This document shows, piece after piece, positions 6,283-36,984 of a stretch of DNA of 64,000 nucleotides. This DNA comes from Methanobacterium ferruginis (GTDB lineage: Archaea > Methanobacteriota > Methanobacteria > Methanobacteriales > Methanobacteriaceae), in assembly GCF_030296715.1 (NCBI RefSeq), contig NZ_AP027738.1, positions 1,892,026-1,956,025 on the forward strand. Reading direction: 5' to 3'. Position numbers and translations under genes: made by a program. The first letter of the stretch is position 1; each line of letters opens with the position of its first letter. Under the pieces are notes generated by a model, which was not told where the DNA came from, made no database searches, and saw only the letters and a list, made by a program, of their open reading frames with translations.

Positions 6283-6286
6283 TACT

Positions 6287-6607: not shown

Positions 6608-6819
6608 ATGATGAGAAGGACACTCCAGGCCCGGGAGCGGTGTTCATGGTGGAAGATCTTTTTAATTAGATATCGGTACCAGGTACTCTGTCTCATCATC
6701 ATTGCGGTGTTATTAGCTGCACTGGCCTGGAGTCATAATCCTGCTGAATTGGAAGGAGTGTATGCACTTGGGTGAGATTTGTATGATGGGGTTGTTTTCA
6801 AGTGTAACTTTTGATTTAT

Positions 6820-6936
6820 GGTCTGGATCTTGTAGTGTAAACGTATTACAGTATGACGTTTACACTTTGGATTTTGCGAATAGGTCTGGATCTCTGGGTG
6901 TAAACGTACTACTGTATTACGTTTACACCTTGGATC
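6820..6936. repeat. two tandem copies (~53 bp each, about 63 bp apart) of the element GGTCTGGATCT...GTGTAAACGTAnTACnGTAtnACGTTTACAC..TTGGAT, each with an internal palindrome GTGTAAACGT/ACGTTTACAC
   Basis: Read directly at 6821-6873 and 6883-6936 in a 420-bp intergenic region. Confidence 0.8.
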
Positions 6937-6954
6937 TCCCTATACATTCGTAGA

Positions 6955-6995
<41 letters not shown>

Positions 6996-7026
6996 AGAAA
7001 GAAGAAAGAAAAGGAGAAAGTTCGCA

Positions 7027-7524
7027 ATGGCTAAAACCAAAATCGTCAGTGCCCGAATAGAACCATGGGTAATTGAAACACTGAAAAACCATGGCCTCAC
7101 CACCAGAGATGCCTTGGAGTATGTTGCAGAACTCCTATCCAGCCCTGATGATCTAGTATGGGAACAGATCAGACGACACAGAGTCACGATAAATAAGCTC
7201 GAACTAGAATGCGAAGCCATCATGGGCCGGACTGATGAAATTCTTGAAGAAATCAAAAGCAAGGAATCTGAAATATCGAAATTGGAAAAACGCCTTAAAC
7301 GTAATCCTGAGGACATGGCTTTTGAAAAGGCAGGACCTGCAATTGCCAGTATTCTCAAAATAGCTAAACGATTCAACTGCGAACCATGGGAAATAAATAG
7401 ATTCACTGGACATGACACGTTAACTTTCCAGGCCAATAAGGTAGGATTGACTAAAACTACACTGGAAGAATTGTTAAAACGTGAATATGAAATCAAAAAT
7501 TCAATTTCATCAACTGAAGGATGA
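7027..7524 (+). CDS. hypothetical protein (165 aa), coiled-coil middle region
   Basis: ORF. AGGAGAAAG lies upstream. Confidence 0.5.
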   Translation: MAKTKIVSARIEPWVIETLKNHGLTTRDALEYVAELLSSPDDLVWEQIRRHRVTINKLELECEAIMGRTDEILEEIKSKESEISKLEKRLKRNPEDMAFEKAGPAIASILKIAKRFNCEPWEINRFTGHDTLTFQANKVGLTKTTLEELLKREYEIKNSISSTEG

Positions 7525-7534
7525 AGAGGTGTAC

Positions 7535-8203
7535 ATGAAAATGGCTGAAGCAAAAGAACAGAAAATAAAAGTTAAAATCCCTGAAACCAGCAACTGGTGG
7601 GATCCTAAAAAGATTGGAGAATGTCTAGTTGGAACATATTGTAAAAAGCAACCTACAACTTTCAATGGACGTAAAAACACGATTTACAATATAAAAAGTG
7701 AGTCTTGCCCTATACGAGATCGTAACGATATGGTAAAGTTTTATGGTACTGTTGTCTTGAACGATGTCCTTGGTAAAATCAAGCCAGGTTATGATGTTGA
7801 AATAATTTATCGTGGCGAACAACCTAGCAAAGACCGGAAAAAGAAGCCTATGAAACTTTTCGATGTCAGTTTTCTGGTGGATCCTACAGATCCTATCCTA
7901 GAAAAAATCTACCCTGACGGTTTACCTGCTGACATACAAGAGCAGGTTGATAAACTCACCGACTCCACAGGTGTAGCTGGTGATGATGAAGATGAACTGA
8001 ACACTTTGAACAACAAGGATAACAGGGAAATTCAGGTTTTCCTGGATGGAGTGGAACAAGATCTCAGGGATGGAAATAAAGAAGTCACTGAAGCCAATGT
8101 TTGGAACTTAGCCCGGGAGCAGGTTGAGGATGATACTGAATTCCTGGAATTGGTGAAGATGGAGATCCGTGAAAGAACTTATCCTACTAAGGAGGGAGAA
8201 TAA
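7535..8203 (+). CDS. hypothetical protein with an acidic C-terminal half
   Basis: The ORF track starts it at 7481, overlapping the upstream gene. An internal ATG at 7535 follows GAGGTG and is the likelier start. Confidence 0.45.
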   Translation: MKMAEAKEQKIKVKIPETSNWWDPKKIGECLVGTYCKKQPTTFNGRKNTIYNIKSESCPIRDRNDMVKFYGTVVLNDVLGKIKPGYDVEIIYRGEQPSKDRKKKPMKLFDVSFLVDPTDPILEKIYPDGLPADIQEQVDKLTDSTGVAGDDEDELNTLNNKDNREIQVFLDGVEQDLRDGNKEVTEANVWNLAREQVEDDTEFLELVKMEIRERTYPTKEGE

Positions 8204-8486
8204 CATTCCCCTCCTTAAGATCTCCACCAAAAAAGGAATACACAGGGCCTTTGAGGATGTTATCAGGAGACATGGCCCTCAAACCTGCAGTAGCATAGTG
8301 GACACTGTGAAAATGGAATATAAAATTACTCGTGTCCAGATTGATAAGGACCGTGCAGCCCAGTACCTAGTTCAAAACCCGAATATTATCATCCTTGGTG
8401 ATATTCAACAGAACGGAAAAGTCCACCTCTATGGATTACACGATGTGGACTATAATTGTAAAACCCTTGCAAAGGTGGTGGCATAA
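8169..8486 (+). CDS. hypothetical protein (105 aa)
   Basis: ORF; the start is uncertain. Confidence 0.35.
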   Translation: MKELILLRRENNIPLLKISTKKGIHRAFEDVIRRHGPQTCSSIVDTVKMEYKITRVQIDKDRAAQYLVQNPNIIILGDIQQNGKVHLYGLHDVDYNCKTLAKVVA

Positions 8487-8487
8487 T

Positions 8488-8919
8488 ATGCCAAGAGGAC
8501 CATTATGGAGTGAGAGAGAAGAAGCCATACTTATAAAAGCTGTTAATGAAGGTAAAAAACCATCTGAGATTAGTAAACGTTTTAAAGAATTGCATAATTT
8601 CCATGATGATATTCACCTGCGCAGTGCAGATGCTATCAGCCGACACCTGCGTAGTATGAAATCACGTAAAAATGGAATAAAAAAAGCACCAAATTCGGGG
8701 AGGAAATGGGATCCAGATGATGATCATCGCCTCCTGGAATTATACCGTGACACCACACTTGAACCAGATGAAATCGCCCTACGGTTACACAGAACCGAAG
8801 GTGGTGTGAAGACTCGGGTAAAAACCCTGGGTATTGGCCACCTCAGAGAACCCAAACCCGGAATCCTAGGTAGATTATTGAATTTTATCCGTGCAGGTGT
8901 CAACACCAACACCCACTAA
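8488..8919 (+). CDS. Myb/SANT-like double-repeat DNA-binding protein
   Basis: MPRGPLWSEREEAILIKAVNEGKKPSEISKRF and KWDPDDDHRLLELYRDTTLEPDEIALRL have W..E(E/D)..L spacing typical of SANT/Myb repeats. Start is taken at 8488. Confidence 0.5.
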   Translation: MPRGPLWSEREEAILIKAVNEGKKPSEISKRFKELHNFHDDIHLRSADAISRHLRSMKSRKNGIKKAPNSGRKWDPDDDHRLLELYRDTTLEPDEIALRLHRTEGGVKTRVKTLGIGHLREPKPGILGRLLNFIRAGVNTNTH

Positions 8920-10288: not shown

Positions 10289-13200
10289 TTAAGGGGTTGA
10301 AATGTAGTCTGTTATGTTGTTGTATGTGTGTGAAGTAGATTGGTTGGTTTCAGATATGTATTCATCTATTCTTGTGAAAATTCCATCAGGAATGAGTTCT
10401 GTAGCTACGAAGTTTTGTACGATTTCTTGTACGCTTTTGCCGTAAGCTGTTTTTATCACACTTTCGATTACTCCATATTTAATGTATACTACTCTTGCCA
10501 CGTAAATTATTTCTGGAACTTCAACGCCACCTACAAATTTTACTCCCACTCTAACTGGTAATGTTTGGATTAAGTAACCTTCGAAACTTATTGGTATGTG
10601 TGAAGCAACAATGGCAACACCCTCTTTTATAAATTGAACTTCGTATAATTCACCTGCTACACCTCCACCACGTAATGGTAAGACATATGAGAGAACCAAA
10701 TTAGAAGTGAATTTAAACCCATTCCAAAAAGTCCACTCCTCACTAAGACCCGAATCAATATAATTAAGATAAATTCCGCCAGCACCAATAACTCCTCCCA
10801 AAAAAATTCCTTTAGGATTAGGAGGTCCATCTGCTTTGATAGTTTTGTAGAGTATTGATGATGATAGGGACATTATTAATCCACTTCCTAAACCTAATAT
10901 GCTGGTTTTGGAAATCGTTGGATTTGCTTCATTATTTGCAATAAGTGATGCTACTATCATACTTGCTATTAGGTATGCATCTTGTAGTTCTTCAAATGTG
11001 GGTGTTCTGTCAGGAGGTAACAACAATTCAATTATGCCATCCCACAGTGCTCGTGTATTCTCCTTCAAATTCCTGATGTCCTCTAAATTCCTCTGAACAT
11101 TGGGATTATTTTGAATATATTGATTATGTTCGTCCCATACTCCTTGTGGTGGTCCTGAACCCTTTCCTAACCATTGGAGCATACCATCCCATGCAATGTC
11201 AAAACTATTATTGTTTCTGAAGTATTCGGCTGTGTTGAATAATCCGTTGCTTTCGGCTTCTTCTATTGCTCCAGGCCTGAGATTATCAAGTAATTTAAGT
11301 GTTACTAGAGGCACCAATATTGGTGCTAAACCACCTAAAAAATATAGTTCACCAAGAGTAGCTGTTCCACATGCGGACTCTCCTATCACAGCGATGATAC
11401 TGCCTAAAGGAATTGTTGAATTACTAATGGAATTCATCCATTCCGGTTGAATAGTTGGATCGCTGCTGGTTAAGTTTTCAGCTAACGAAATTTGGTTGTC
11501 TGTTATTTGGTCATGGAAGCAGTAAACTCCGTTGATTCCTAATGCGCAGTCAGTAACTATTCCAGTAACCGGATCCAGCAATAAGAAAAGATCATCTTTG
11601 CCTTGAATTTTATAAACCAAATAACCGTTACTGTAGAATAATTCAGGTATTTCTCCGTTGAGGATGCGTTCTCCTAGTCCCAGGGTCACGGAGAGGCTAG
11701 TGGGGTCACTAGCCACACAATATTCTATGGGTGAGAATGCGGATGAACAGGCAAATCTGAATGCCCAAACATTGCTTATTGTGCCGTTTACGTCCATACC
11801 CATCCGGAGATTAGATTCACCAGTAATATAAGCATCTTTAGCATCATCAAGACATGAAACTACCACAGGAGTGGTGCGGCTCCATGTTACATTAAACTCC
11901 TCTGCTGCCTGGTCTGCCACCATGTCATGACATTTGATTACTAGGAGGGATGTGAGGAATGTTCCATAGGCTGCTTTCATAGCCCCTGGAGCGTATAAGG
12001 ATTGTTTGGCTAGCCAGTACTGCACCACATTATTGGTTACTTTGGTGGTGGCAATGGTAAAACTTCTTACACCTTCATATCCTGCATTTCCATCTTCAGT
12101 GTAACCATTGAAGTATATCATGGGGCTTTCACGAAGGATTACATCTCCTGGTTTAATAAAACTCAAAGTTTCGTTGGTATTGGGATTTTTGAGTGTTACA
12201 TATTCAGTAACATCTCCAGGATAAGTCATGAGAACATACATTGAATCTATGAACATATTTCGGTTATTTTTAATGAAATTAATTTCATTGTCTGTGAAAT
12301 TATTTTGTAGTTTAATCAGTGTTAAAAAAACATCTTCCAACTGTTCTATAGTGTAATTTTGGTACTGTGGGTTGAGAGTAATGAAATTCTGTAAGTAAAT
12401 GTTAGATTCTAGTGGATTTAAAAAAATTCCATTTATATAGAGTATTTGATTGAAAACTTGTGCAGAATAAGAATTTTGATAAGTGATATAAGCAGAATTA
12501 ACTACATTCCAACTTAAAACCACATTACCATTAACAATCAAGTCCACCTCATTATGGAATAAGCCGGTATTTTTCCATAATACACTGACCCAGCTTGTGG
12601 ATTCATTTAAAGGTAATGTATATGTTACATCGAGTGGTTGAGTTGTGGATAAGTCAATGGCGGTGCTTATGATCCTTACATTGGCTTGTGCAGCCCAGTC
12701 CACGCTGGTGAGAACGCCCTCATTATCCACTATTGCTATAACACCAGTAACATTGTAAAAATTGGGGTTTAACACCAATGTGGATGATGCTTTGCCATTT
12801 AATGTATATTGCAAGAAAGGTATTGTGCCATTTTGTGCTACGAAATATACTGGTATATTATCAGGTATGCAACCTTGAAGTGAGATATCTTCACCATTAC
12901 TATTATGTGTTAAGTCCGCAGTTATGGTAGATTCATAGATTTTTCCATTTGAAACTTTATATGAAGTAGGACTGATATTTAAAACAAGATAAGGAGTGAA
13001 ATTTTCTCCAATCCACCAAGTTGGTATTGTAGGTTGTTCAGAAGTAGTTTCCACATAAAAAACATCGGCGTTCATAGATAGGTCAGTACCTATTACTGGA
13101 TTGTTTGAACCCCACCAGTTATTAATAACATTAACAGAACCACCTTTCATAAAAAGGCCAGTTTTATTGTTTCCTGTAATCCGATTAAAATGTATATGGG

Positions 13201-16200
13201 CATTGGTGGCGTAAGTGTAAATCCCGATATAATTGTTAATTATAGTATTCTCCAGAACATGAGTATCTTCTGATCCTGAAGATGAACTGTAATAATCACT
13301 TTCGATGAAGATTCCATTTGTATTATTCATTATCAAGTTTTCAGTGATATAATTGTAGAAAGATATTGAATGTGTTCCAAAGCAGTATTCTTCATAATCT
13401 AAAATAGCATATTCATACAGTTCCGGGATATTATCATATGTAGAACTAAAAAACTCGTCAAAACTATCACACCAAGCAGGTACTAAAATACCTCTCTCAT
13501 TATTCATTATGATATTAGATTTGACTTGATTATATGATGAGTCCAAAACATAAACTCCATAACAGTTATTTTCAAGGGTGTTGTTTTCTATCGTGCAATT
13601 GTTAGTGGATTTGAGAAGTATGCCAGAAGGGGAAAGAATTTCTGAATATTGATTGGCTTGGTTAGCTCCAATAATAGTAAATCCATAAATGACTGAACCA
13701 TTTCCCCCTGTATTAATGGTGAAAACAGAAAGTGATGGATTAGCTGCCTGTACAGTTACATTACCCTCTGAAATAATAAATAAACTTTTATTAAGTTCAA
13801 TATTTTCCAGATATGTTCCATTTTCTACTAGTATGATGTCACCATCCCTTGTCAATGGATCATTTGCAGCTGCATGTATTGTGTTGAAAGATTTACGGAA
13901 ATCTTTAGAAATTGTTTCATCATCTGCACTTGCAAAAACAGTTGTTGCCTCAGATGAAGAGCTGGAAGTTAAATTCACAGTTGCTCTACCTTTTCTAGTA
14001 GTTGTAGTGGTCGTGATATTTCCCAGCGTGGTGGTGAAATTCACAGGTAAACCATCAGGTATTGCACCAGAACCAGAGGTATCTTCTCCCTGATTGTTAT
14101 GGGTTAGATCGGCAGTTATTTCCGAATTAGAGTTACTGTTTTGGGTTACATGAATAGTTGAGCCTGTTAAATTGAGCATCAGCCAAAGTTCGTGATCAAC
14201 AAATCCATCAGCAATGTGAATATCACTGGAATTATTTGAGGAAACTGTAAGGTTGTTGGTTCCCCACCAGTTGTTGTTTGCGTTTATAGTAGAGTTACCA
14301 TTAGTTTCAAGTCCATATATGTTGTTTTCAATTATTCTATTGAAATTGACAGAAGCTGAGGATGAATAAAAGGTTATTCCACTATAACGGTTATTGGAGA
14401 TGTCATTTTCATAGATGCTATTGTTGTAAGAATCAGAAAATTTCATTCCATTATAACTGTTATGGGAAATGTAATTTCCTAAAAATATATTATTATTACT
14501 TCCACAATTCATGCCCCCAAAATTTATTCCATCTGCACGATTGTATGAAATATTATTGTATAAAATCGTGTTATTTATTGAATTATGTGCTTGTATACCA
14601 TATGTATTCTGTAGAATAACATTATCTGCAATTATATTTTTAGAGGATAGTGAAAGATAAATTGCACAAAATTGGATTTGTTTTAAAATATTTGTTAAAA
14701 GTTGATTATCATTGGAGTTAACAATATTTACTCCTATCACTGCATTTAATAATTGATTCTCTTCTATTTTGCTATTTGACGATTCGCTAATATCAATTGC
14801 AGTGTATGAAGAACTATTTATCGTGTTGTTATGGATTAATGTATTATTTGAAGCATATATGGAGATCCCATAATAATTTCCTTGTATAATATTTCCAATA
14901 ATACTACAATTATTTGCAGACTGAAGATGTATACCCTTTGTATTTTCTGAAGTTTCAGTTTCTATTAAAGTGAAACCCTGTATAGAAGAACCATTTCCAC
15001 TTGAAGTTATGGTAAAAATGGGTTGAGATGAATCCAAAGCAAACAGAGTCACATTACCCTCAGAAACTGCTTTTATGGTGAGACTTTTATTAACAATAAT
15101 ATTCTCTGTGAAAGTTCCTAAGGAAACTTCGATGGTATGACCGCTCAAAGTCAATGGATCATTAATAGCTGCTTGAATACTAAAATAACTTCTTCCTGTA
15201 TTAATATTTTTTATTAATTCAATAATATATTGTTCAGTGTTAACAGGCCCTTGGTTACCTGCATTATCTACTGCTATGAATTTTAAGGTGGTGGTATTAA
15301 CTATGGTGATGGGATTGTTGTATATTGTGCTGGATGTTGTTGGGTTAGTACCATCTATAGTGTAATAGATAGTTGGATTTGGGTCAAGATTGTCTGTTGC
15401 AGTTAAAGTCACAGATTTTGTTGTATTGTAAGTTCCACTTGCAGGATTTGCAACCACGGTTGGTGCTAGGGTATCACTTGATGTTATGGTGATATTTGTT
15501 TGTTCAGTCTGTTCATCTAGTGTAGTAGTGATGGTTGCTGTTCCTGAAGTGGCTGAGCCGCGGTTGAATGTTGTATTTGCTTTTCCATTGTTGGTGTATG
15601 CTGTAGTGGTTATTGTACCTAAATTAGTGGTGAAATTCACTGGAATACCATCTGGTAGATGACCTTGTGAAGAAGTATCGACTCCATTGCTGTTGTGTGT
15701 GAGATCTGCAGTTACAATAGAATTATTATAAGTGGTCGTAGGGGTAGCGATTACATTTAAGACCAACCAAGGGTCTACACACCAAAGAGCTTCATGATCA
15801 TACCATTGTTCAAACACAAAACCATGGCAAAAAATGTCCATAGGGGTGGTTGGTACAGAATAGTCAGAATAATCCATTAATATCTGATTAGAACCCCACC
15901 AGTTATTTTCTGCATCAAAAGATATTCCTTCAATCACTTCTAACCATAAGTCAGCAATATTATTATCGTTTAGCTGGTTGAAGTGCATGTTAAATTGGCT
16001 GGAATTGGAGTAAACACCATAAACGTTTTCAGATATGATATTGCTTATTATGCTGGTGTCGCTTGTGTTCATTCCCCCAATGGCCCAGATTCCACTCCAA
16101 TCACCTAATAAATAAATACCATAGTGATTATTTTTTATTTTATTTTGGGATATTGTGTTGTATAATGAAAATGAAGAATATAATTCTGTACACTCTGCAG

Positions 16201-18247
16201 GGATGAAAATTCCCTGTGTGTTATCTGTTATGCTATTTGACGTAATGTTATTGTTTGATGAATTAAAAAGACTGAGGCCTTCCTGATTATTTGTCACATG
16301 ATTTGAAATAATCTGGTTTCCTGAGGAGTTAGATAAATAGATTCCTTTACTATTACTAATAATATAGTTACCTTGTATTTTACAGTTGCATGCTGAGTCT
16401 AGATATATTCCTGCAGAATTGGTGGCAGCAGTAATCCAGAGATAACGGATCCATGATCCACTACCAAGAGAGGTCACGGTTAAAACAGGTTTCGATGGGT
16501 CAGCAGCCCTTAATGTCACACCCTCACAATCTGGTGTCAGGGTAAGTTTTTTGTTAAGAATGATATTTTCAGTAGGAAGAGTCGCTGCAAGGTAGAGTAA
16601 GTGCCCGTTAATAGTTAATGGATCATCAATTGCTTCTTGGATGGTGGCATAAACTTTTGTTGTGTTGGCATTTTCAACTGGAAGGTTTAATCTGTAAGTT
16701 TCGGTTTGTATTGGTGATTGATTTCCAGTGAAATCTATGGCCATAAATTTTAAAGTAGTAATTCTGTTTTCAAGGAGTATGGGACCCACATACAATGTAC
16801 TTGTGGTTGTAGGGTTACTGCCATTAATTGTGTAATAAATGTGAGGATCAGGGTCGGTGTTATCAGTTACAGTTAAGGTTATATTCTGATAAGTGTTGTA
16901 GGTTCCTCCTGGTAGATTGGCTGTTACGGTTGGTGCTAGGGTATCACTTGATGTTATGGTGATATTTGTTTGTTCAGTCTGTTCATCTAGTGTAGTAGTG
17001 ATGGTTGCTGTTCCTGAAGTGGCTGAGCCGCGGTTGAATGTTGTATTTGCTTTTCCATTGTTGGTGTATGCTGTAGTGGTTATTGTACCTAAATTAGTGG
17101 TGAAATTCACTGGAATACCATCTGGTAGATGACCTTGTGAAGAAGTATCGACTCCATTGCTGTTGTGTGTGAGATCTGCTGTTATGGTAGCGTTATTTGT
17201 CACATTTGTAGGGACTGCAGTTACATTTAGAACCAACCAGGGATCGTATAGGACTGTTCCACCCATTATCATAATATTTGCAGTTTCATTAGAGGACACT
17301 GTTGGGTTGTTAGTTCCCCACCAGTTGTTTGTTGCATTTACATTTCCATTCTCACTGCTAAGCTCATAATCACTGTTTGAAGAAATTCTGTTAAAATGGA
17401 TATCCGCTGAAGAGTTATAAAGATAAATCGTTGCCCAGGTACCAATGATATTATTTTTATAGATATATGTATTGTCTGAATTAGAGATACGAATATCACT
17501 GAGGGTGTTTTCACATATGATACTATTAGCTGAATAATTTGAGATATAAATGCCACCTAAATTATTCTCAAAAAAGATATTATCCATGGAATAATTGAAT
17601 AGTCTGATGGCATCATCGACATTATTATTATCGATGACATTGTCCGTAGAGTTGTATAGGTTAAATCCACCTCCTTCGATATTCACGGAATTATTATTTC
17701 CAGAAATAATGTTGTTCATTGAATTTTCAAGAATAATCCCCATACCATTGTCTATCACAATATTTTCCAATATCTCATTGTTGTTTGAATTTAGAAGTCT
17801 CATTCCAGAACAGCCATTTCCTCTAGCTGAATTTCCAGAAATAGTACAATCATTAGCAGAATTAACATAAACACCAGTAATACCCCCAGTTATAGTAAAA
17901 CCACTAATTATGGATCCACTACCTCCAGAGTTTATAGTTAATGTAGGGTTTGAATAATTGGAAGCTTTAATTGTAACATTAGAACCAGTATCTGTTTTTA
18001 AATTAATATTTTTGTTAATAACAATATTCTCAGTATAAGTATAAGCAGAACCATTATTATCATTCACTATTATGGAATCACCAGAAGATGCACTGTCCAC
18101 CACTGACTGAATACTATCACCCACACTCACATTCCACTCAGCCGCTGAAACTGCTCCACAAAAAAATAACAAAACCACTAAAAACAAGATACCAAAAGAA
18201 AATTTAGACACATTACTCATATTTTTCCCCCCACACATACTTTTCAC
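10289..18247 (-). CDS. giant secreted adhesin-like protein (about 2650 aa) with repeated parallel beta-helix modules, NWWG(T/S)NN motifs and Big/chitobiase-C-like modules
   Basis: N-terminal signal peptide. The likely start is the second ATG, at 18220, after a GGGGGG run. There are four modules of NS/NN-rich beta-helix repeats, each followed by ADLTHNSNG(V/E)D...PDG(I/L)PVNFTT and TLKF(M/I)A(I/V)D..GNQ segments. The architecture is typical of methanogen adhesin-like proteins. Confidence 0.75.
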   Translation of the reverse strand: MKSMCGGKNMSNVSKFSFGILFLVVLLFFCGAVSAAEWNVSVGDSIQSVVDSASSGDSIIVNDNNGSAYTYTENIVINKNINLKTDTGSNVTIKASNYSNPTLTINSGGSGSIISGFTITGGITGVYVNSANDCTISGNSARGNGCSGMRLLNSNNNEILENIVIDNGMGIILENSMNNIISGNNNSVNIEGGGFNLYNSTDNVIDNNNVDDAIRLFNYSMDNIFFENNLGGIYISNYSANSIICENTLSDIRISNSDNTYIYKNNIIGTWATIYLYNSSADIHFNRISSNSDYELSSENGNVNATNNWWGTNNPTVSSNETANIMIMGGTVLYDPWLVLNVTAVPTNVTNNATITADLTHNSNGVDTSSQGHLPDGIPVNFTTNLGTITTTAYTNNGKANTTFNRGSATSGTATITTTLDEQTEQTNITITSSDTLAPTVTANLPGGTYNTYQNITLTVTDNTDPDPHIYYTINGSNPTTTSTLYVGPILLENRITTLKFMAIDFTGNQSPIQTETYRLNLPVENANTTKVYATIQEAIDDPLTINGHLLYLAATLPTENIILNKKLTLTPDCEGVTLRAADPSKPVLTVTSLGSGSWIRYLWITAATNSAGIYLDSACNCKIQGNYIISNSKGIYLSNSSGNQIISNHVTNNQEGLSLFNSSNNNITSNSITDNTQGIFIPAECTELYSSFSLYNTISQNKIKNNHYGIYLLGDWSGIWAIGGMNTSDTSIISNIISENVYGVYSNSSQFNMHFNQLNDNNIADLWLEVIEGISFDAENNWWGSNQILMDYSDYSVPTTPMDIFCHGFVFEQWYDHEALWCVDPWLVLNVIATPTTTYNNSIVTADLTHNSNGVDTSSQGHLPDGIPVNFTTNLGTITTTAYTNNGKANTTFNRGSATSGTATITTTLDEQTEQTNITITSSDTLAPTVVANPASGTYNTTKSVTLTATDNLDPNPTIYYTIDGTNPTTSSTIYNNPITIVNTTTLKFIAVDNAGNQGPVNTEQYIIELIKNINTGRSYFSIQAAINDPLTLSGHTIEVSLGTFTENIIVNKSLTIKAVSEGNVTLFALDSSQPIFTITSSGNGSSIQGFTLIETETSENTKGIHLQSANNCSIIGNIIQGNYYGISIYASNNTLIHNNTINSSSYTAIDISESSNSKIEENQLLNAVIGVNIVNSNDNQLLTNILKQIQFCAIYLSLSSKNIIADNVILQNTYGIQAHNSINNTILYNNISYNRADGINFGGMNCGSNNNIFLGNYISHNSYNGMKFSDSYNNSIYENDISNNRYSGITFYSSSASVNFNRIIENNIYGLETNGNSTINANNNWWGTNNLTVSSNNSSDIHIADGFVDHELWLMLNLTGSTIHVTQNSNSNSEITADLTHNNQGEDTSGSGAIPDGLPVNFTTTLGNITTTTTTRKGRATVNLTSSSSSEATTVFASADDETISKDFRKSFNTIHAAANDPLTRDGDIILVENGTYLENIELNKSLFIISEGNVTVQAANPSLSVFTINTGGNGSVIYGFTIIGANQANQYSEILSPSGILLKSTNNCTIENNTLENNCYGVYVLDSSYNQVKSNIIMNNERGILVPAWCDSFDEFFSSTYDNIPELYEYAILDYEEYCFGTHSISFYNYITENLIMNNTNGIFIESDYYSSSSGSEDTHVLENTIINNYIGIYTYATNAHIHFNRITGNNKTGLFMKGGSVNVINNWWGSNNPVIGTDLSMNADVFYVETTSEQPTIPTWWIGENFTPYLVLNISPTSYKVSNGKIYESTITADLTHNSNGEDISLQGCIPDNIPVYFVAQNGTIPFLQYTLNGKASSTLVLNPNFYNVTGVIAIVDNEGVLTSVDWAAQANVRIISTAIDLSTTQPLDVTYTLPLNESTSWVSVLWKNTGLFHNEVDLIVNGNVVLSWNVVNSAYITYQNSYSAQVFNQILYINGIFLNPLESNIYLQNFITLNPQYQNYTIEQLEDVFLTLIKLQNNFTDNEINFIKNNRNMFIDSMYVLMTYPGDVTEYVTLKNPNTNETLSFIKPGDVILRESPMIYFNGYTEDGNAGYEGVRSFTIATTKVTNNVVQYWLAKQSLYAPGAMKAAYGTFLTSLLVIKCHDMVADQAAEEFNVTWSRTTPVVVSCLDDAKDAYITGESNLRMGMDVNGTISNVWAFRFACSSAFSPIEYCVASDPTSLSVTLGLGERILNGEIPELFYSNGYLVYKIQGKDDLFLLLDPVTGIVTDCALGINGVYCFHDQITDNQISLAENLTSSDPTIQPEWMNSISNSTIPLGSIIAVIGESACGTATLGELYFLGGLAPILVPLVTLKLLDNLRPGAIEEAESNGLFNTAEYFRNNNSFDIAWDGMLQWLGKGSGPPQGVWDEHNQYIQNNPNVQRNLEDIRNLKENTRALWDGIIELLLPPDRTPTFEELQDAYLIASMIVASLIANNEANPTISKTSILGLGSGLIMSLSSSILYKTIKADGPPNPKGIFLGGVIGAGGIYLNYIDSGLSEEWTFWNGFKFTSNLVLSYVLPLRGGGVAGELYEVQFIKEGVAIVASHIPISFEGYLIQTLPVRVGVKFVGGVEVPEIIYVARVVYIKYGVIESVIKTAYGKSVQEIVQNFVATELIPDGIFTRIDEYISETNQSTSHTYNNITDYISTP
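15456..15709. repeat. 254-bp segment repeated exactly 1470 bp downstream (16926-17179), inside the adhesin gene
   Basis: Compared base by base; the two copies are identical. Confidence 0.85.
16926..17179. repeat. second copy of the exact 254-bp intragenic repeat
   Basis: Identical to 15456-15709. Confidence 0.85.
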
Positions 18248-18685
18248 ATTTTCAATTAAATTGTAAACTTTTTCAACTAATTTTTGAATAAAATATCTAA
18301 GGTTAATTTAAGAAATACAATATTAATACTTATCTATAATAAATTATTTAATGCATACTTAAATAGTATGAAAAACTTATATAAAAGTCTTAAAAAACTT
18401 TAAAAAAAAATATGTAAATACACCGATGAATCAACGAAAAACTTGTGATTCAGAAGTTATATCTATAAATAAAGGGTATTTTATTGTTTTTAGTTAGTTA
18501 ACTTGTTATAGTAAACTTTTTTTTATTCAATATATACATAAATTTGTTATTAGACAACAACAAGGAATTTAATAATTTAATTTCACATATAATATTTATA
18601 TAAATCTTTAAATTTAATTTTAACCAAAAATATTATATATTAGATGATTCAAATATAATAAAAGGACTAAAACGTTTAATGGAGG

Positions 18686-19165
18686 ATGTACTGGATGATG
18701 GCTGCAAAACAAGTTGAAATGGCATATGTTAAAAAAGAAAAGAAAGACTGGGAGCGATTTATTAAAAAATATGAAACTAAACGGAAAGGAGAGGTAAATC
18801 AACAGGGCCAAAACCATCCCATGGTAACCTACAGGGAGAAAGAAAGAATACGTTATGCGCAGAACATGATGGAAGTCAAAGCTTTACACCTCCCGGGAGA
18901 GTTAAAAGAACAGGTCATATACCTAATTAAAAACGGACCATCAGTTAAACAGTTATGTGCTCATTGTAAGTGGCAGACTGTTATTTTAGCTTTGATTTTT
19001 TATATTAAATTCAATGACAATGGAGGTGTGGGGAATATTGAACGGTACAGGGTAGCCCAGGATGCAGGGTTGACGGAAACTGTTTATCTCAGAATCACTA
19101 CAAAGTTAGGGAAATATTTCCAGAAACACATGGCATTGTCAAAAAGAATTAAACCAAAAAATTAA
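18686..19165 (+). CDS. hypothetical protein with a segment resembling a single TFB/cyclin-like repeat
   Basis: LHLPGELKEQVIYLIKNGPSVKQLCAHCKWQTVILALIFYIKFNDNGGVGNIERYRVAQDAGLTETVYLRITTKLGKYF follows the pattern of a TFIIB cyclin repeat (L.LP..V.e.A...Y.kA...gl..gR....vaAA.lY.A.R..g.prT..eIa...gv....I.r.Y). This is a weak match made by eye. Confidence 0.4.
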   Translation: MYWMMAAKQVEMAYVKKEKKDWERFIKKYETKRKGEVNQQGQNHPMVTYREKERIRYAQNMMEVKALHLPGELKEQVIYLIKNGPSVKQLCAHCKWQTVILALIFYIKFNDNGGVGNIERYRVAQDAGLTETVYLRITTKLGKYFQKHMALSKRIKPKN

Positions 19166-19233
19166 GACATTGAACCCCAAAAATTCAATTCTTAATTTCC
19201 ACTCTTTTTTTAATTTTAAACCATTCTCCTTTA

Positions 19234-19734
19234 GTGTCTCATGTTTGTGATGTTCTTATATTAAGAAGCAAAAAATACTGGAGGGGTTGGTGCGGTCTGG
19301 CAAAGTTTGATCAGGATCTTGAATGGTTGAAACTAGTACGTGATGGTATTTGTCCTGAATGTTTAAACCAACATAATCCAAGAAATCGTAGATTAATTAA
19401 AAAAGGCATCAAAAGAGAATGTAGTCAGGGCCACCTTGAAATATATGGAAACCCGGAATATCTTGCTTATGTTCGTGTACAAAAGAAAACACCAAAGGAA
19501 AAAGTTGATGGCTGCCCTGGATGCGGTGGTAGGGCAGTTACTTATGATAAAAAACATGATGAAATCCTCTGTGATGATTGTGGCCTGGTACTTTCAGGTC
19601 CTCCCCATGAGATCCGTCCCGGGAAGTGGGTGAATTATCCTAGGGGTAACCGGTTTGATTATAGTGAAGTTAACGCTACGTACACTCCTTACGAAGATGA
19701 CCAATGTGATTATGGGACATATATTCCAGAATGA
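19234..19734 (+). CDS. TFB-type N-terminal zinc-ribbon protein lacking cyclin core domains (Tfb3-like candidate)
   Basis: CPGCGGRAVTYDKKHDEILCDDCGLVL matches the TFIIB Zn-ribbon consensus CPECG..l..D...GE.VC..CGLVl. A second CxxC...C..H cluster lies upstream. The protein has only 166 aa. Confidence 0.55.
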   Translation: MSHVCDVLILRSKKYWRGWCGLAKFDQDLEWLKLVRDGICPECLNQHNPRNRRLIKKGIKRECSQGHLEIYGNPEYLAYVRVQKKTPKEKVDGCPGCGGRAVTYDKKHDEILCDDCGLVLSGPPHEIRPGKWVNYPRGNRFDYSEVNATYTPYEDDQCDYGTYIPE

Positions 19735-19793
19735 TAATTCATGTTCATCTAGTCATTTTAGATGGAATCCTTACATCCAAATGTGTACCTCAA

Positions 19794-19828
19794 GTGGCCA
19801 TGTGTTTTATTCTTGCTTCCATGGCCAC
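19794..19828 (+). terminator. hairpin (GTGGCCATG ... CATGGCCAC) followed by a T-rich tract, downstream of the zinc-ribbon gene
   Basis: Perfect 9-bp inverted repeat with a 17-nt loop, then taaactatttattttctccc. Confidence 0.3.
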
Positions 19829-20108
19829 TAAACTATTTATTTTCTCCCTTCAGATTCACTGGTGATGGATTAGAAGCCATATTAAAAAAAACACCTTAAA
19901 AAACCTATAATAGAAGACCCTTTTGGACCTATTTTAATTCATCACCAGTTCATTTTATTCTATTTTTTTTTGTATGTTTGTTTATTAGTTACAGTTCCAA
20001 GGTTCAGGTCCTGATGCAGCTGTGGCCACGGTAACTGAACAAAATCTTATTATTTTATTGTTATTCTCATTGTCTAATGAACAAAAAACTAAAAAAGGAG
20101 ATGAAAAC

Positions 20109-20435
20109 ATGGTAGTAATACCAGCAGACGTGTTATTGATAGCAGCCGGGCTTGGAGCATTCCTCCAGGTATGGCAAATGGACGGATACAATTTTGGAAT
20201 ATTTTGGGAAAATGGAACACTCCAGATGGGAATAATCATGACTTTTGTGACCGGAATAGGTGGAGCTATTCTAGCTTTGCTAACTGGTTTAATTCCATTG
20301 ACTGGCAACCTAAAAATTGATTTACTTATAGTGTTCTTCACAGCATTCATGATACCATTTGCAATAGACCGGTTCATCACTAAAAGTTCTATTGGAAACA
20401 CTGAAACCACTGAAGATTCAGCAGACGCTGCCTAA
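20109..20435 (+). CDS. small membrane protein
   Basis: The ORF track starts it at 20022. An internal ATG at 20109 is preceded by GGAG. Clean TM helices. The antisense ORF 19985-20410 is judged spurious. Confidence 0.5.
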   Translation: MVVIPADVLLIAAGLGAFLQVWQMDGYNFGIFWENGTLQMGIIMTFVTGIGGAILALLTGLIPLTGNLKIDLLIVFFTAFMIPFAIDRFITKSSIGNTETTEDSADAA

Positions 20436-20803: not shown

Positions 20804-21295
20804 TTGAAAATATCTAATTATCCTGTGATGAAGTTATCTGAAATAAGATTACACCCTCAAAACCCAAGACAACATACTGATGACCAGATAAAAAAGATTG
20901 CAAATAGCATTAAAGAACTTGGATGGGGAAGGCCATTAATATTAAGCCGTGATAATTTCATTTTAGCTGGTCATGGTGCATACTTAGCAGCCAGAGACAT
21001 TTTAGGATATACTGAAGCACCAATAAAAAATATGAACCACTCCCATGATGCTCCTGAAGCATTGGCCTATATGGTTGCAGATAATAAATTGACTGAAGAA
21101 AGTGATTGGAACTATGCAAAACTAGAAGCATTAAATGAAAATCTACAACTTGAAGGATTTGACACTACACTAACCGCCTTTGATACAGATTTGAAAACAC
21201 CTAACTTTCAACCAGTTAACGAAGAAAAACAACCCAGACTTGATAAGTTAGATCCTAAAGGTTTAAAATGTCCAGAGTGTGGATACGAATGGTAG
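20804..21295 (+). CDS. ParB-like nuclease domain (ParB N-terminal/sulfiredoxin-fold) protein
   Basis: LSEIRLHPQNPRQHTDDQIKKIANSIKELGWGRPLILSRDNFILAGHGAYLAA resembles ParBc (..NPR......l..L..SI...G...Pi.v......ii.G.hR..Aa). The C-terminus has a C..C pair. Confidence 0.6.
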   Translation: MKISNYPVMKLSEIRLHPQNPRQHTDDQIKKIANSIKELGWGRPLILSRDNFILAGHGAYLAARDILGYTEAPIKNMNHSHDAPEALAYMVADNKLTEESDWNYAKLEALNENLQLEGFDTTLTAFDTDLKTPNFQPVNEEKQPRLDKLDPKGLKCPECGYEW

Positions 21296-21903
21296 ATTTG
21301 AAAGTTGATTTCTGTAGTTATGAAGCAGCTAAACATGCAGTATTGCATTGGCATTACTCACGGTCAATGCCCGCAGGAAAACTAGTGAAAATTGGTGCAT
21401 GGGAAAATGGAAAATTCATTGGATGTGTGCTCTTTGGAAGAGGAGCAAACAATCACATAGGAAATCCTTACAATTTAAAACAAAATGAAGTATGTGAACT
21501 TGTTAGAATTGCACTAAAAAACCACCAAACAAATGTAACCAAAATAGTAAGCAAATCTTTAAAACTATTGAAAAAAACGAATCCGTACCTTAAATTAGTT
21601 GTAAGCTATGCAGATAAAGACCAAAATCATTTAGGGAAAATATATCAAGCAGGTAATTGGATATATGATGGTTTAAAAAACCAAAACACTGCAGGAGCAT
21701 TTATAATTAAAAACAAAAAGGTACACCCCCGATCTGTTGCATCTATGGGATGGGTACAATCATTAAAATGGATTCAGGAGAATGTTGACCCTAATGCTAG
21801 AACACATATTACAAAAGGTAAATTCAAATATCTCTACCCCTTGTCCAAAAAAACACGTGAACAAATCAGACCTTTAAAGAAACCTTATCCTAGGCGGTTG
21901 TAG
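21268..21903 (+). CDS. hypothetical protein (211 aa), overlaps the ParB-like gene; possible DNA-modification partner
   Basis: Overlapping, translationally coupled ORF. No confident motif. Confidence 0.45.
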   Translation: MSRVWIRMVDLKVDFCSYEAAKHAVLHWHYSRSMPAGKLVKIGAWENGKFIGCVLFGRGANNHIGNPYNLKQNEVCELVRIALKNHQTNVTKIVSKSLKLLKKTNPYLKLVVSYADKDQNHLGKIYQAGNWIYDGLKNQNTAGAFIIKNKKVHPRSVASMGWVQSLKWIQENVDPNARTHITKGKFKYLYPLSKKTREQIRPLKKPYPRRL

Positions 21904-21970
21904 TTTAATGGAGGCCAAAACCCATCATCATACCAATGATGAGAAGCTGGTTCAAATCCAGCCAACCGCA
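21894..21970 (+). tRNA. tRNA-like gene (77 nt); putative anticodon UAC (Val) in a non-canonical loop
   Basis: Folded by hand. Acceptor stem 7 bp and perfect (gcggttg/caaccgc). D stem gttt/aaac with a GG-containing loop. T stem gctgg/ccagc with loop TTCAAAT. The anticodon stem is 6 bp (catcat/atgatg) with loop CATACCA, so position 33 is A and position 37 is C, both atypical. The 5' end overlaps the stop codon of the upstream ORF. Confidence 0.45.
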
Positions 21971-22033
21971 CTCAAACCTGAATTAATGCGAGATTAGAAA
22001 AATTATTATACAAAATTAATATTACTAACTAAC

Positions 22034-22999
22034 ATGATTGAAACACGCACAGTGTTAATCTTAGGAGCAGGTGCTAGTGCTCCTTATGGTTATCCTCTTG
22101 GAAATACACTAAAAAGCAAAATAGCTAATTCTTTACATTATATGATACAAAAAGAATATGGGTGGATTCAAGATTCAGATATTCCGAAAGAATTAATCAA
22201 ACAATTTATTGACAGTTTAAATCAAACCAGAAGACCTTCAATAGACTCTTTTTTAGCTAAACAAAAAGAAGAATTTACAGAAATTGGAAAAATAGCCATA
22301 GCTCATCAGATCGCTCAATGTGAAAAAAGAGGGATAATCTATTCAGATTCAATGAAAGCAAATAAAGAATTAGACGAAACAGATGATTGGTATGGTTATT
22401 TAGTAGAAATTCTTTATGAATCAGAAATAGATAAAATTGGAAAAAATCTTAGTATAGTTACTTACAATTATGATAGATCTCTTGAATATTTTTTATTAAA
22501 AACTTTGCTTAATGATTTTGGGGATTTAGAAACTGTTGATGATTGTATTCCATTAATCGAAAAGATCCCAATAGTACATATTTATGGAAGGTTAGACCCT
22601 CTCCCCTGGGAATTGGCTTGTGATAAATATGATACAGGAAGGGATTATGGGGATACCTGTTCAAGTGAAAATTTGTTCCAAATAAGTGAGAATATTAAAT
22701 TAATTCAGGAAACCCAACATTCTTCTGTGGTTGAAGATGCAAACAAAGTAATAAAGAAAGCCCATAAAATTTATTTTTTAGGGATGGATTTATACAGAAA
22801 CCGAGGAAATGTGAATTTATTAGATACTTCATCATTTAATGGTAAAACTATAGTAGCTACAGGATATGGTTTAGAAGGAGGAGAAAGAAATCGTATCACA
22901 TCTTTTTTTAAACATATTCCAAATGTTAATGTACCCCCAACGTTTAGAATTTCAGATTCAAAAACATTAATGACTATTAGAAGTCTTAATCCATTTTAA
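22034..22999 (+). CDS. stand-alone SIR2_2-family (DHS-like NAD-binding) protein; candidate NAD-depleting anti-phage defence gene (ThsA/DSR-type SIR2 without the usual partner domain)
   Basis: LILGAGASAPYGYPLGNTLKSKI gives GAGxS plus GxP, LSIVTYNYDRSLEY gives the TTNYD..LE hallmark, and IPIVHIYGRL gives the HxxG motif. The protein has 321 aa. It sits between the early/ParB region and TerS in the prophage. Confidence 0.7.
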   Translation: MIETRTVLILGAGASAPYGYPLGNTLKSKIANSLHYMIQKEYGWIQDSDIPKELIKQFIDSLNQTRRPSIDSFLAKQKEEFTEIGKIAIAHQIAQCEKRGIIYSDSMKANKELDETDDWYGYLVEILYESEIDKIGKNLSIVTYNYDRSLEYFLLKTLLNDFGDLETVDDCIPLIEKIPIVHIYGRLDPLPWELACDKYDTGRDYGDTCSSENLFQISENIKLIQETQHSSVVEDANKVIKKAHKIYFLGMDLYRNRGNVNLLDTSSFNGKTIVATGYGLEGGERNRITSFFKHIPNVNVPPTFRISDSKTLMTIRSLNPF

Positions 23000-23436: not shown

Positions 23437-23994
23437 ATGAAGGAGAAAGAAAACCACCTCGACGCTTTTGAGTATTTTTACAGTCTTGGAGGTGCTGCAT
23501 CTGCAGAAAATTGCAGAAAAGTTGCAGATAAATTTCAGATATCTGAAAGATCATTCTGGAACTGGTACAAGGAATTAGGGTGGAAAGAAAGGGTTCACCT
23601 ACGCAACATTGAAGTTGCCAAAGGAGTGGAAGAAAAAACGGTCTCTACTCTTATTGAGAATAAAGCGAAGTACCTATCTTACGTTCACAAATTATTCGAT
23701 GACTGGAAAGCGAAGGTTGATGCTGGTGAGGTTCCAGTTGAGATTAAATCCGTTAGTGATGTTGATAAAATTGTGAAACTTGCTTTACTACTTCAAGATG
23801 AGGCTACTGATAAGACTGAAACTTCTGTTACTGGAACTTTAAATTTTAAAGCCCAGGGTTTGGAGCGCCTGAGAAGGATTGAGGCACAGCATGACAGCGG
23901 TGACGGTGGCCACTCCTCAGTCGACGGAGGACCTGCAGGCACAGGTGAATCTGGAACTGAGGAACATTCAGAAACAAGAACCAGAGATAAATAG
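23437..23994 (+). CDS. putative terminase small subunit (HTH-type)
   Basis: It lies immediately upstream of the terminase large subunit, which it overlaps. The N-terminus is helix-rich (FEYFYSLGGAASAENCRKVADKFQISERSFWNW) and the C-terminus is acidic. Confidence 0.5.
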   Translation: MKEKENHLDAFEYFYSLGGAASAENCRKVADKFQISERSFWNWYKELGWKERVHLRNIEVAKGVEEKTVSTLIENKAKYLSYVHKLFDDWKAKVDAGEVPVEIKSVSDVDKIVKLALLLQDEATDKTETSVTGTLNFKAQGLERLRRIEAQHDSGDGGHSSVDGGPAGTGESGTEEHSETRTRDK

Positions 23995-25447
23995 TCTTGA
24001 AGATCTTATTGATTGGAAGATTACAGTCTGGGAAAAACAGTTTGAAGTTGATGACCGGGTTCGATGCCTGTGGCAGTCCCTTTCCCGGGATGAAAAAGAT
24101 AATTTTTATGATACTGTTATTCTGAATCCTTACATTCCTGTTGTTCCATTTTTCCAGCAGATATTGCTTCTGGTTACCCATGGATCTACCTTGTATGGTG
24201 GTGCTCGTGGTGGGGGTAAGACTGAGGCCAGTTTGATAGCTGCTCTGCAATATGTTGATTATCCTCAGTGGAAAGCTGGTATTTTCCGTTTAACTTATCC
24301 TGATTTGTCAGCTCCAGGGGCCATAATGGACCGTGCCCTTGACTGGCTGAGTAAAGATAGAAATCCCCTACTTGAAGAGGCGGGTATTGCACCACGTTGG
24401 GATAAAGCTGACAAGGTTTTCATATTTCCTAGTGGTGCTAAGGTTAAATTTGCCCATGTTCAGCATAATAAAGATGCTGAGAAATACCAGGGCAGTGAAT
24501 TCCATTTATTAATATTTGATGAAGCAGTACTCTTCACTGAGTACAAAATTACTAGGATTAAAGGTTCTAATCGTAAGAAAATCAATGATCCGCTACCGAT
24601 ACGGATTATTTTCACAGGTAACCCTGGTGGTATTAGTCATGATTATTTCAAGGATAGATTTATTGATGGTCCTGGCCTGTTCATTGACAGTAAATATACT
24701 GATAATCCGTACTTGGACCATGAGAAATATGAAGAGATTTTTATTGAAATTGAGGACAGTGATCCTGTCCTTTGGAGGCAGTGGAAGCATGGTGATTGGA
24801 ATGCAGTGCCTGAAGGTAAACTCTTCAAACGAAAATGGTTCACCAAGGCCAGTCGTCTCTATGAAGTCATCACAGAAAAAATACTGCAATGGGTGCGTTT
24901 CTGGGATCTGGCCGCTACAGAAGAAGAAGATGATACCAAACAGGGAGGAGCTGACTGGACCGTGGGAATGCTCCTCGGCCTAGGAGAATCTGGTAAAGTT
25001 TACCTGGAGGATATTGTAAGATTCCGAAAAGATGCAGATGAAGCTGAAGAACTGATCCTGGAAACCGCCAGGAAAGATGCAGAAAAATATGGAAGGACCA
25101 ATATCAAGATCCGGATAGAAAAAGAAGGCGGAGCATCAGCCAATTATGTGATGAACACATTCAGCAAATACCTACCCGGATTTGACTTTGAAGGCCACAA
25201 CGTCCAAAGAAAAAGCAAATTAGACCGAGCCAGAGCATTTGTCAGTTTCATTAAACACGGTCACCTCAAAATAAGAGAAGGAGCAAGCTGGATAACCACA
25301 TTCATAAATGAAGTAGCATCATTCCCCACCAAAGGAATCCATGATGACCAAGTGGACACTCTCAGCGGAGGATTAAACGAACTATTTTATGGTGAGCAAC
25401 CCACGGAACGTGTTCCATTCAACCCAACATTAAGGAGCAGAAGATAA
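23879..25447 (+). CDS. terL: terminase large subunit
   Basis: Walker A GGARGGGKT, and a Walker B-like hhhhDE in HLLIFDEAV. 522 aa. The following gene is portal-sized. The true start may lie downstream of 23879. Confidence 0.8.
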   Translation: MRHSMTAVTVATPQSTEDLQAQVNLELRNIQKQEPEINSLEDLIDWKITVWEKQFEVDDRVRCLWQSLSRDEKDNFYDTVILNPYIPVVPFFQQILLLVTHGSTLYGGARGGGKTEASLIAALQYVDYPQWKAGIFRLTYPDLSAPGAIMDRALDWLSKDRNPLLEEAGIAPRWDKADKVFIFPSGAKVKFAHVQHNKDAEKYQGSEFHLLIFDEAVLFTEYKITRIKGSNRKKINDPLPIRIIFTGNPGGISHDYFKDRFIDGPGLFIDSKYTDNPYLDHEKYEEIFIEIEDSDPVLWRQWKHGDWNAVPEGKLFKRKWFTKASRLYEVITEKILQWVRFWDLAATEEEDDTKQGGADWTVGMLLGLGESGKVYLEDIVRFRKDADEAEELILETARKDAEKYGRTNIKIRIEKEGGASANYVMNTFSKYLPGFDFEGHNVQRKSKLDRARAFVSFIKHGHLKIREGASWITTFINEVASFPTKGIHDDQVDTLSGGLNELFYGEQPTERVPFNPTLRSRR

Positions 25448-36069: not shown

Positions 36070-36194
36070 AAATATTCCCTCCCGATAACTATAAGAAAAT
36101 GGAGATTATGATCTCACAAAAAAAATATTACTTTTTAATTAATAATACTTTTCATTTTTTTTATCCCCAAAAACATTTGGAGGTTTTTAGAAAC

Positions 36195-36964: not shown

Positions 36965-36984
36965 ATGGAAAAATAGATACATAT

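Follow-up and report, generated by a model that had tools for sequence, protein, structure and literature searches.

A conserved cyclin-fold and zinc-ribbon gene pair beside the packaging genes of Methanobacteriales tailed viruses: a candidate split TFB-like factor

The N-terminal zinc ribbon of the basal transcription initiation factor TFB (TFIIB in eukaryotes) docks on RNA polymerase. Among bacterial viruses, phage T4 has its sigma function split over two small proteins, gp55 and gp33, and phage P2 encodes a zinc-finger late activator, Ogr. Archaeal viruses exploit the TBP and TFB of their hosts, according to a 2017 review (PMC5569661). Full-length TFB homologues are annotated in the rudiviruses ARV2, ARV3, MRV1 and SSRV1, in the Sulfolobales viruses YNP1 and YNP2, in Halorubrum tailed viruses, in Asgard WyrdV1 and related elements, and in magroviruses; no functional test of these viral homologues was found in the literature covered. 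A further relative, Sulfolobus TFB3, is a TFB paralogue that bears the ribbon, lacks both B-finger and helix–turn–helix (HTH) and acts as an activator in the ultraviolet response, and it is proposed to bridge RNA polymerase to a DNA-bound complex via a DNA-binding partner not yet identified (PMC6101591). Here we describe two adjacent genes, open reading frame (ORF) 1 and ORF2, of a provirus of about 50 kb in Methanobacterium ferruginis. They lie in the 64,000-nucleotide stretch of contig NZ_AP027738.1 that was analysed as a whole (the window, to which positions refer unless another contig is named). An initial annotation had proposed that the two genes mimic separate parts of TFB. Both are present on the forward strand, and the resemblance to separate TFB parts is borne out, with domain fusions and conserved adjacency tying the two together. 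The pair forms a conserved, previously unrecognised module, for which a role as a split, minimal TFB-like factor acting at the initiation of viral late genes is tentatively proposed, with confidence a little short of even.

ORF2 carries a C4 zinc ribbon (KVDGCPGCGGRAVTYDKKHDEILCDDCGLVLSGPP) of spacing CxxC-x15-CxxC at residues 94–116 (nucleotides 19513–19581), with CPGCGG at residues 94–99, EILCDDCGLVL at residues 110–120 and all four cysteines present. The motif, the length of 166 residues and the lack of a cyclin core are exactly as first described. The best Pfam match is Zn_Ribbon_TF (PF08271), the N-terminal C4 ribbon of TFIIB type, with residues 94–120 aligned to model positions 3–29 (E 7.2e-6), in a match that falls below the curated threshold (see below). 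This family outranks every other Pfam ribbon family, which answers the concern that an unrelated ribbon might fit better; the lower-ranked matches are Ribosomal_S27e (E 1.9e-4), DUF7351 (E 5.9e-4) and Lar. A primase-type ribbon was rejected, no such family being among the Pfam matches. An Rpb9-type ribbon was likewise rejected: three sequences of the ORF1-family alignment gave the only matches, all of them weak (E of at least 0.048).

The ORF2 homologues fall into 18 protein clusters of 51–87% identity. PF08271 is the commonest match in this family (12 of 19 members, best E 4e-7). A search of the PDB with the family profile finds the ribbon of Pyrococcus furiosus TFB (1pft, E 0.005); Trypanosoma brucei KKT4, which lacks the ribbon cysteines, ranks above it in the same search (E 3e-4). 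Profile comparison by hhalign used a TFB/TFIIB reference alignment of four haloarchaeal plasmid TFBs, four annotated viral TFBs and human TFIIB, the last verified against the PDB over all 316 residues (706 bits). The ORF2 family aligns to it with 92–96% probability (P 3e-9 to 5e-7), and seven small ribbon proteins that adjoin distant ORF1 homologues, aligned alone, do so with 94.5% probability (P 8e-8). The AlphaFold2 model places three short strands across the ribbon. By description ORF2 is similar to TFB3 in being small, in bearing a TFB-type ribbon and in lacking a DNA-binding HTH (PMC6101591). In contrast, TFB3 is cellular and crenarchaeal and has its own short C-terminal domain, whereas ORF1 and ORF2 are viral and euryarchaeal (Methanobacteriales) and the ribbon has a dedicated cyclin-fold partner gene.

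Two further segments of ORF2, the N-terminal Cys/His module and the acidic, aromatic tail, set it apart from TFB. The Cys/His module includes the basic stretch NPRNRRLIKKGIKR, within a segment (residues 1–90) of isoelectric point (pI) 9.6, and is confined to the subfamily from Methanobacterium viruses. Pfam gives no match to this stretch and the PDB profile search only weak eL29-like matches; the module is probably a second metal site. Most ORF2 homologues are called from about residue 32, and the stretch upstream of that point (YW.GWC.LAKF..D.EWL) is still conserved as protein. On the other side of the ribbon the hhalign alignment continues, weakly, into the segment that follows in TFB. There the ORF2 sequence PGKWVNYP lies opposite GPEWRAF, and the invariant W132 falls on the invariant tryptophan of GPEWR, the motif with which the B-reader begins. 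A GPEWR-like motif is not kept in all of the distant small ribbon proteins, and equivalence of the post-ribbon segment to the B-reader is suggestive only.

The frame of ORF1 was correctly predicted and its start probably was not. An in-frame ATG occurs at position 18686, the start first assigned, but the homologues and the NCBI protein begin 9 bases further 3′, so the start is most likely at 18695 (MMAAK...). The NCBI entry, a hypothetical protein of M. ferruginis (156 residues, from a 2.8-Mb contig), is 100% identical to ORF1. In the AlphaFold2 model, calculated from a 37-sequence alignment, residues 41–146 are confidently predicted, with a mean predicted local distance difference test (pLDDT) score of 79–95 in blocks of ten residues. 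The helices at residues 68–145 together with the long leading helix make up one repeat. Structural comparison assigns this domain to the cyclin fold, the five-helix repeat of the superfamily that contains TFIIB, cyclins, the Rb pocket and Orc6, with TFIIB cores as the best neighbours and Orc6 scoring lower; the cyclin-fold match for which the initial annotation had called was thus found, with TFIIB on top. A search of viral models in BFVD with Foldseek gives borderline matches to TFIIB/Brf1-like proteins of giant viruses and to a protein from a tailed virus of Halogranum. A broad profile of the ORF1 family aligns by hhalign to the linker and first cyclin repeat of TFB (P 3e-5 to 8.5e-5, probability 57–72%) and much more poorly to the second repeat (P 0.017). 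The proposal of a single cyclin-like repeat stands, repeat 1 being its best match. The predicted cyclin fold of ORF1 is well supported; that it descends specifically from TFB repeat 1 is probable, short of proof.

The conserved motif at residues 25–35 lies in a low-confidence segment of the model, 5′ of the cyclin core. It is retained as [LI]L-x-K-Y...GE in relatives fused to nucleases or ribbons (see below), and hhalign sets the N-terminal segment of ORF1, with low confidence, opposite the B-linker of TFB. Within the core, a CxxC pair (LCAHCKW, residues 88–91, nucleotides 18956–18967) is invariant in the 37-sequence alignment, which comprises relatives from Methanobacterium viruses and one further protein, P0055. 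The pair is found in many distant members and absent from others (for example LHRKASCETII in locus L016), and two cysteines are insufficient for a full zinc site.

The ORF1 family comprises 37 clusters down to 40% identity. Searching 1.8 billion representative proteins with a profile extended it to at least 128 clusters (E at most 1e-3), mostly stand-alone proteins of 120–160 residues. ORF1 matches PHROG 30657, whose function is not annotated (E 1e-4), and matches the family of ORF6 from the virus psiM2 over the whole domain. Five relatives (P0120, P0125, P0143, P0164 and P0174) are fusions in which an N-terminal CxxC...CxxC ribbon is followed by a linker and the ORF1 domain. This is the domain order of TFB. 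Four of the five match PF08271, and only P0174 exceeds the curated cut-off (31.8 bits against 29). A few relatives (P0073, P0085 and P0100) have two ORF1 domains in tandem. In others a complete ORF1 domain, the [LI]L-x-K-Y...GE lead-in included, is C-terminal to a nuclease, of GIY-YIG type in P0128 and P0136 and of HNH type in P0096; P0155 has an N-terminal extension that looks GIY-YIG-like by eye and has no Pfam match. In homing-type nucleases the C-terminal position is that of the DNA-targeting module. These nuclease fusions and the pI of 9.9 indicate that sequence-specific DNA binding is most likely the elementary activity of the ORF1 domain, which is not confined to initiation complexes.

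The pairing is ancient. Fourteen distinct loci with enough sequence were compared, namely the window, contigs from IMG/VR and JGI, and psiM2. A zinc-ribbon gene lies directly 3′ of the ORF1-like gene in 11 of them, including divergent ones in which ORF1 identity is only about 28–35%. A twelfth locus, L005, has an insertion that parts the homologues of ORF1 and ORF2. This insertion (5262–8231 of that contig, about 2.8 kb) contains four ORFs, and the ORF2 homologue there is reduced to a C-terminal ORF of 61 residues. In L019 (840–1067) and L020 (4422–4649), counted as one locus, the gene after the ORF1-like gene is ribbon-like (KFDEHHNEVVDITTGLVVSK) without the cysteines, apparently a derivative of the ribbon partner that no longer binds zinc. 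In L022 a ribbon gene is missing.

Direct searches with ORF1 and ORF2 by tblastn of 50,697 phage records gave no match, and a scan of genome contigs returned a single contig of 1.5 kb. The L016 homologue links the family to ORF6 of Methanobacterium phage psiM2 and of Methanothermobacter phage psiM100 (tblastn E 4e-7 to 4e-9), a link that the L014 member does not give. Both ORF6 proteins, annotated as unknown, are true members of the ORF1 family. Directly after ORF6, in what the GenBank record of psiM2 (L032, AF065411) leaves as a gap of about 400 bp, lies an unannotated forward-strand ORF of 70 residues (3736–3948) that encodes CPECGC...CCQNCGLVL and has PF08271 as its best Pfam match. The psiM2 order is therefore ORF6, ribbon ORF, gap, ORF7 (a membrane protein), then the small and large terminase subunits (TerS, TerL) and the portal, as in the window. 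ORF6 differs from ORF1 in its shorter length (117 residues) and, as annotated, in its incomplete N-terminal motif, and the psiM2 ribbon protein lacks the N-terminal Cys/His module and the long acidic tail of ORF2. The fusions, the conserved adjacency and the psiM2 layout together show that ORF1 and ORF2 belong together. For psiM2 the annotation can be corrected accordingly, with the ribbon ORF added and ORF6 described as a cyclin-fold protein.

The surroundings of the pair are equally constant. In every locus it is followed by a non-coding gap of 265–560 bp, by one to several small genes and then by TerS, TerL and portal. The small genes encode a predicted membrane or coiled-coil protein, joined in certain loci by ParB-like, Mom, HNH or other proteins. 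The pair always comes after the integrase and the early block, on the same strand as the TerS–TerL–portal–capsid module directly downstream, so the label of early genes given by the initial annotation is not supported. The slot directly 5′ of the pair is occupied by unrelated cargo, a giant adhesin gene in the window and a PAS histidine kinase gene in L001–L004 (4001–5347 in L001). It looks like an insertion site for cargo genes (morons), and the unrelated cargo suggests that two transcription units meet here. Regulators of late genes typically occupy the slot just upstream of the morphogenesis genes in temperate tailed phages, and in P2-like and lambda-like phages a regulator gene lies where the late or morphogenesis genes adjoin.

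On the proposed role, ORF1 would use its basic, single cyclin-fold domain to bind a site on viral DNA, possibly jointly with TBP in the manner of TFB repeat 1, and would thereby mark virus-specific promoters. The TFB-type ribbon of ORF2 would engage the dock of RNA polymerase and recruit or re-tune the host enzyme. The two proteins would thus act as a non-covalent mini-TFB that turns on the packaging and morphogenesis genes directly downstream. The likeness to T4 gp55/gp33 and P2 Ogr is that of small virus proteins replacing or supplementing the host initiation factor for late genes; those factors are bacterial, sigma-dependent and not homologous at the level examined here, and the analogy is one of logic and position only. 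The stronger form of the proposal, in which Methanobacteriales tailed viruses including psiM2 have a two-subunit basal initiation factor that replaces or overrides host TFB at late promoters, is doubtful. Were it true, the factor would be the archaeal equivalent of phage late sigma factors such as gp55/gp33, and a single cyclin repeat with a free ribbon would suffice for promoter-specific initiation. As a conserved, split TFB-like module the pair would offer archaeal tailed viruses, in which little is known about the timing of gene expression, a concrete candidate for their switch from early to late genes. It would also be a natural minimal TFB, with one cyclin repeat and a detached ribbon, informing which parts of TFB/TFIIB serve promoter recognition and which serve polymerase recruitment. 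With psiM2, which has been isolated from Methanothermobacter, the idea can be tested directly in a cultivable virus–host system, and purified in vitro transcription systems exist for this genus.

Several results weigh against a TFB-like late factor. ORF1 has a single cyclin repeat, and the repeat of TFB that carries the HTH reading the TFB recognition element (BRE) is missing. The gene order, cyclin before ribbon, is the reverse of that in TFB. The PF08271 score of ORF2 (25.9 bits) is below the curated cut-off of 29, and its AlphaFold2 model is poor (pLDDT 55.4). At the sequence level the narrow ORF1 profile gives no signal against TFB in hhalign, none of 114 family members matches the Pfam TFIIB cyclin model PF00382 at E of 1 or below, and profile searches of the PDB with 10 and 114 family sequences yield nothing meaningful. 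Foldseek finds no significant match for the ORF1 model in the PDB (best E 0.95), the matches of highest probability being cyclins and TFIIB at only 0.3–0.44. No shared late-promoter or operator motif was identified in the gap after ORF2, where palindromes and an A-rich/TTAAAA block were the only elements found. As its fusions to nucleases show, the ORF1 domain can also serve outside transcription initiation. Lastly, we infer the DNA binding, the contact with RNA polymerase and TBP, the mutual interaction of the two proteins and activation rather than inhibition.

Activation is the point at which an unlikely alternative departs from the late-factor proposal. On this alternative, which follows a suggestion of host blockage, the free ribbon would fill the dock of RNA polymerase and the lone cyclin repeat the TBP–DNA complex; both would compete with host TFB, and host initiation would be blocked or dampened. 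The homologies of ORF1 and ORF2 to TFB are equally expected of such decoys, and a factor without a second cyclin repeat and a clear B-reader or B-linker may fail at open-complex formation. Archaeal viruses also encode RNA polymerase inhibitors, for example ORF145/RIP of ATV (PMC5123050). However, temperate proviruses conserve the module at the late-operon boundary, away from the integrase and lysogeny end, and a global shut-off would also stop the late genes of the virus itself, which rely on host RNA polymerase. The TFB order of the fused proteins suggests in addition a working bridge between DNA and polymerase and not two independent decoys. The genomic position favours redirection to late genes over host shut-off.

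It is also improbable that ORF1 is a plain sequence-specific DNA-binding regulator of cyclin/HTH-like fold, the ribbon being an accessory zinc finger and the likeness to TFB a matter of fold ancestry and not of mechanism. A C-terminal role in GIY-YIG and HNH nucleases needs DNA binding only, ORF1 is strongly basic, and its sequence similarity to TFB cyclin repeats is marginal. Small zinc ribbons are moreover generic, and the ribbon partner has lost its cysteines in one lineage and is absent from another. Against this, a ribbon of specifically TFB type turns up independently in three sets (the ORF2 family, the small ribbons of distant loci and the fused proteins). If neither partner touched the basal machinery, it would also be hard to account for so tight and ancient a linkage of a TFB-type ribbon with a TFB-type cyclin domain, fusions in TFB order among them.

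A service to DNA packaging or replication, with ORF1 as an Orc6-like protein or as a protein that recognises the pac or cos site and aids the terminase, is very unlikely: every locus has a separate TerS, TFIIB cores outscore Orc6 for ORF1, and TerS is set off from the pair by a large non-coding gap and by one or two further genes. To our knowledge no role in packaging has been described for TFB-type ribbons. Chance resemblance to TFB, the CxxC...CxxC motif and the helical bundle both being generic and unrelated to it, might account for the sub-threshold Pfam score of ORF2, the non-significant Foldseek result and the want of a Pfam cyclin match in the ORF1 family, and is hardly credible.

Measured against TFB itself, the candidate late factor shares the ribbon and the five-helix cyclin fold, the latter aligning to linker and first repeat, and some relatives have the full ribbon–linker–cyclin arrangement. 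It differs in being made of separate polypeptides, in lacking two tandem cyclin repeats on the ribbon polypeptide and in lacking membership of the PF00382 sequence family. With one repeat, separate polypeptides and no Pfam cyclin match, the pair is not a TFB proper but a new, split and reduced variant of the virus-encoded TFB-like factors. A Pfam scan of ORF1 alone also gives no match, and that of its 114 relatives one weak match to RB_B. The full-length viral TFBs are, like the pair, virus-encoded relatives of the host basal initiation factor; they are single proteins of about 270–330 residues with a ribbon and two cyclin repeats, in contrast to the split, one-repeat pair of Methanobacteriales tailed viruses. 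A plain tblastn search with human TFIIB finds these full-length proteins (E 1e-10 to 4e-17), none of them from methanogen viruses, and the ORF1/ORF2 pair is invisible to it. The literature covered, which did not extend to a 2023 compendium of methanogen viruses, contains no description of the module and nothing that links psiM2, Leisingerviridae or Methanobacteriales viruses with TFB.

The features of the locus and of the provirus, which runs from the integrase to the endolysin, are collected in Table 1.

Table 1. Features of the ORF1/ORF2 locus and of the surrounding provirus (positions in the window; a point marks a feature without strand).
Feature	Position	Strand	Description or basis
Tyrosine integrase	285–1502		Left end of provirus
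Block of small ORFs		+	After integrase; includes Myb/HTH protein (8395–8919)
Beta-helix, adhesin-like gene	10289–18247	-	2652 residues; between early block and ORF1
AT-rich intergenic region	18248–18694	.	447 bp; between divergent adhesin-like gene and ORF1
ORF1	18695–19165	+	156 residues, pI 9.9 (basic); cyclin fold, stand-alone; related to core repeat 1 of TFB/TFIIB
ORF1, conserved N-terminal motif K-Y-x-T-K-x-x-G-E-x-N	18767–18799	+	Residues 25–35; invariant or near-invariant alignment columns
ORF1, cyclin-like five-helix core	18815–19132	+	Residues 41–146, one long helix ahead; AlphaFold2
ORF2	19234–19734	+	166 residues from GTG at 19234; zinc-ribbon protein without cyclin core
ORF2, extra N-terminal Cys/His module CPEC-x19-C-x3-H	19351–19434	+	C40, C43, C63, H67; invariant columns
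ORF2, TFB/TFIIB-type C4 zinc ribbon	19513–19593	+	C94, C97, C113, C116; Pfam, PDB profile, hhalign
ORF2, post-ribbon segment SGPP...PG(K/R)WV.YP, then acidic, aromatic tail	19594–19731	+	Tail pI 4.4; alignment, charge
Non-coding gap	19735–20105	.	About 370 bp; ORF2 to first gene of downstream morphogenesis-side block
Two small genes after ORF2		+	First has hydrophobic, membrane-like sequence
ParB-like N-terminal-domain protein	20804–21295		Overlaps start of Mom-like gene
Mom-like DNA-modification gene	21268–21903		End overlaps tRNA-Val gene
tRNA-Val(TAC)	21894–21971		Between TFB-like pair and terminase
TerS	23437–23994	+	
TerL	23879–25447	+	Close to psiM2 TerL (E 2e-99)
Probable portal, then HK97-type capsid protein	31557–32435 (capsid)	+	
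Tail genes, then endolysin	49545–50516 (endolysin)		

The AT-rich region upstream of ORF1 contains several TATA-like boxes and a GGAGG ribosome-binding site (18682–18686) and is the presumed promoter region of the pair. The gap downstream of ORF2 is a candidate regulatory or late-promoter region. Directly after the ORF2 stop codon lies a hairpin or palindrome, TTCATCTA...TAGATGGAA, which in the relatives takes the form TTCATC-loop-GATGAA. The TTCATC...GATGAA palindrome recurs at 5556–5577 and 7506–7525, both times at the end of a gene in the provirus's early region (2 occurrences against 0.16 expected). The gap further contains a perfect 9-bp inverted repeat, GTGGCCATG-n17-CATGGCCAC, at 19794–19828, which is common to L005, an 18-nucleotide inverted repeat (19858–19875 and 19932–19949), and the conserved A-rich/TTAAAA block near 19883–19915. 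Rfam gave no match over 18200–20200. Allowing at most one mismatch, GTGGCCATG occurs at 23 sites in the window against 7.9 expected from shuffled sequences, none of 100 shuffles reaching 23; this excess could reflect bias in codons or motifs, or mark a recognition site. In L013 a gene for tRNA-Ala(GGC) (982–1060 of that contig) lies in the gap after the ORF2 homologue, at a position that is non-coding in the window.

Among the neighbouring genes, the product of the adhesin-like gene consists of repeated right-handed beta-helix-like units with a signal-like segment at the N-terminus. Between the tRNA-Val gene and TerS a forward-strand ORF of 321 residues (22034–22999) has a weak match to SIR2_2 (E 0.032) and may be a defence or counter-defence gene. 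Further downstream a cluster of minus-strand ORFs (35530–40967), one of which encodes 581 residues without a PHROG match (37330–39075), breaks up the forward-strand structural module. The GC skew of this cluster is strongly negative, and it may be another inserted block of cargo.

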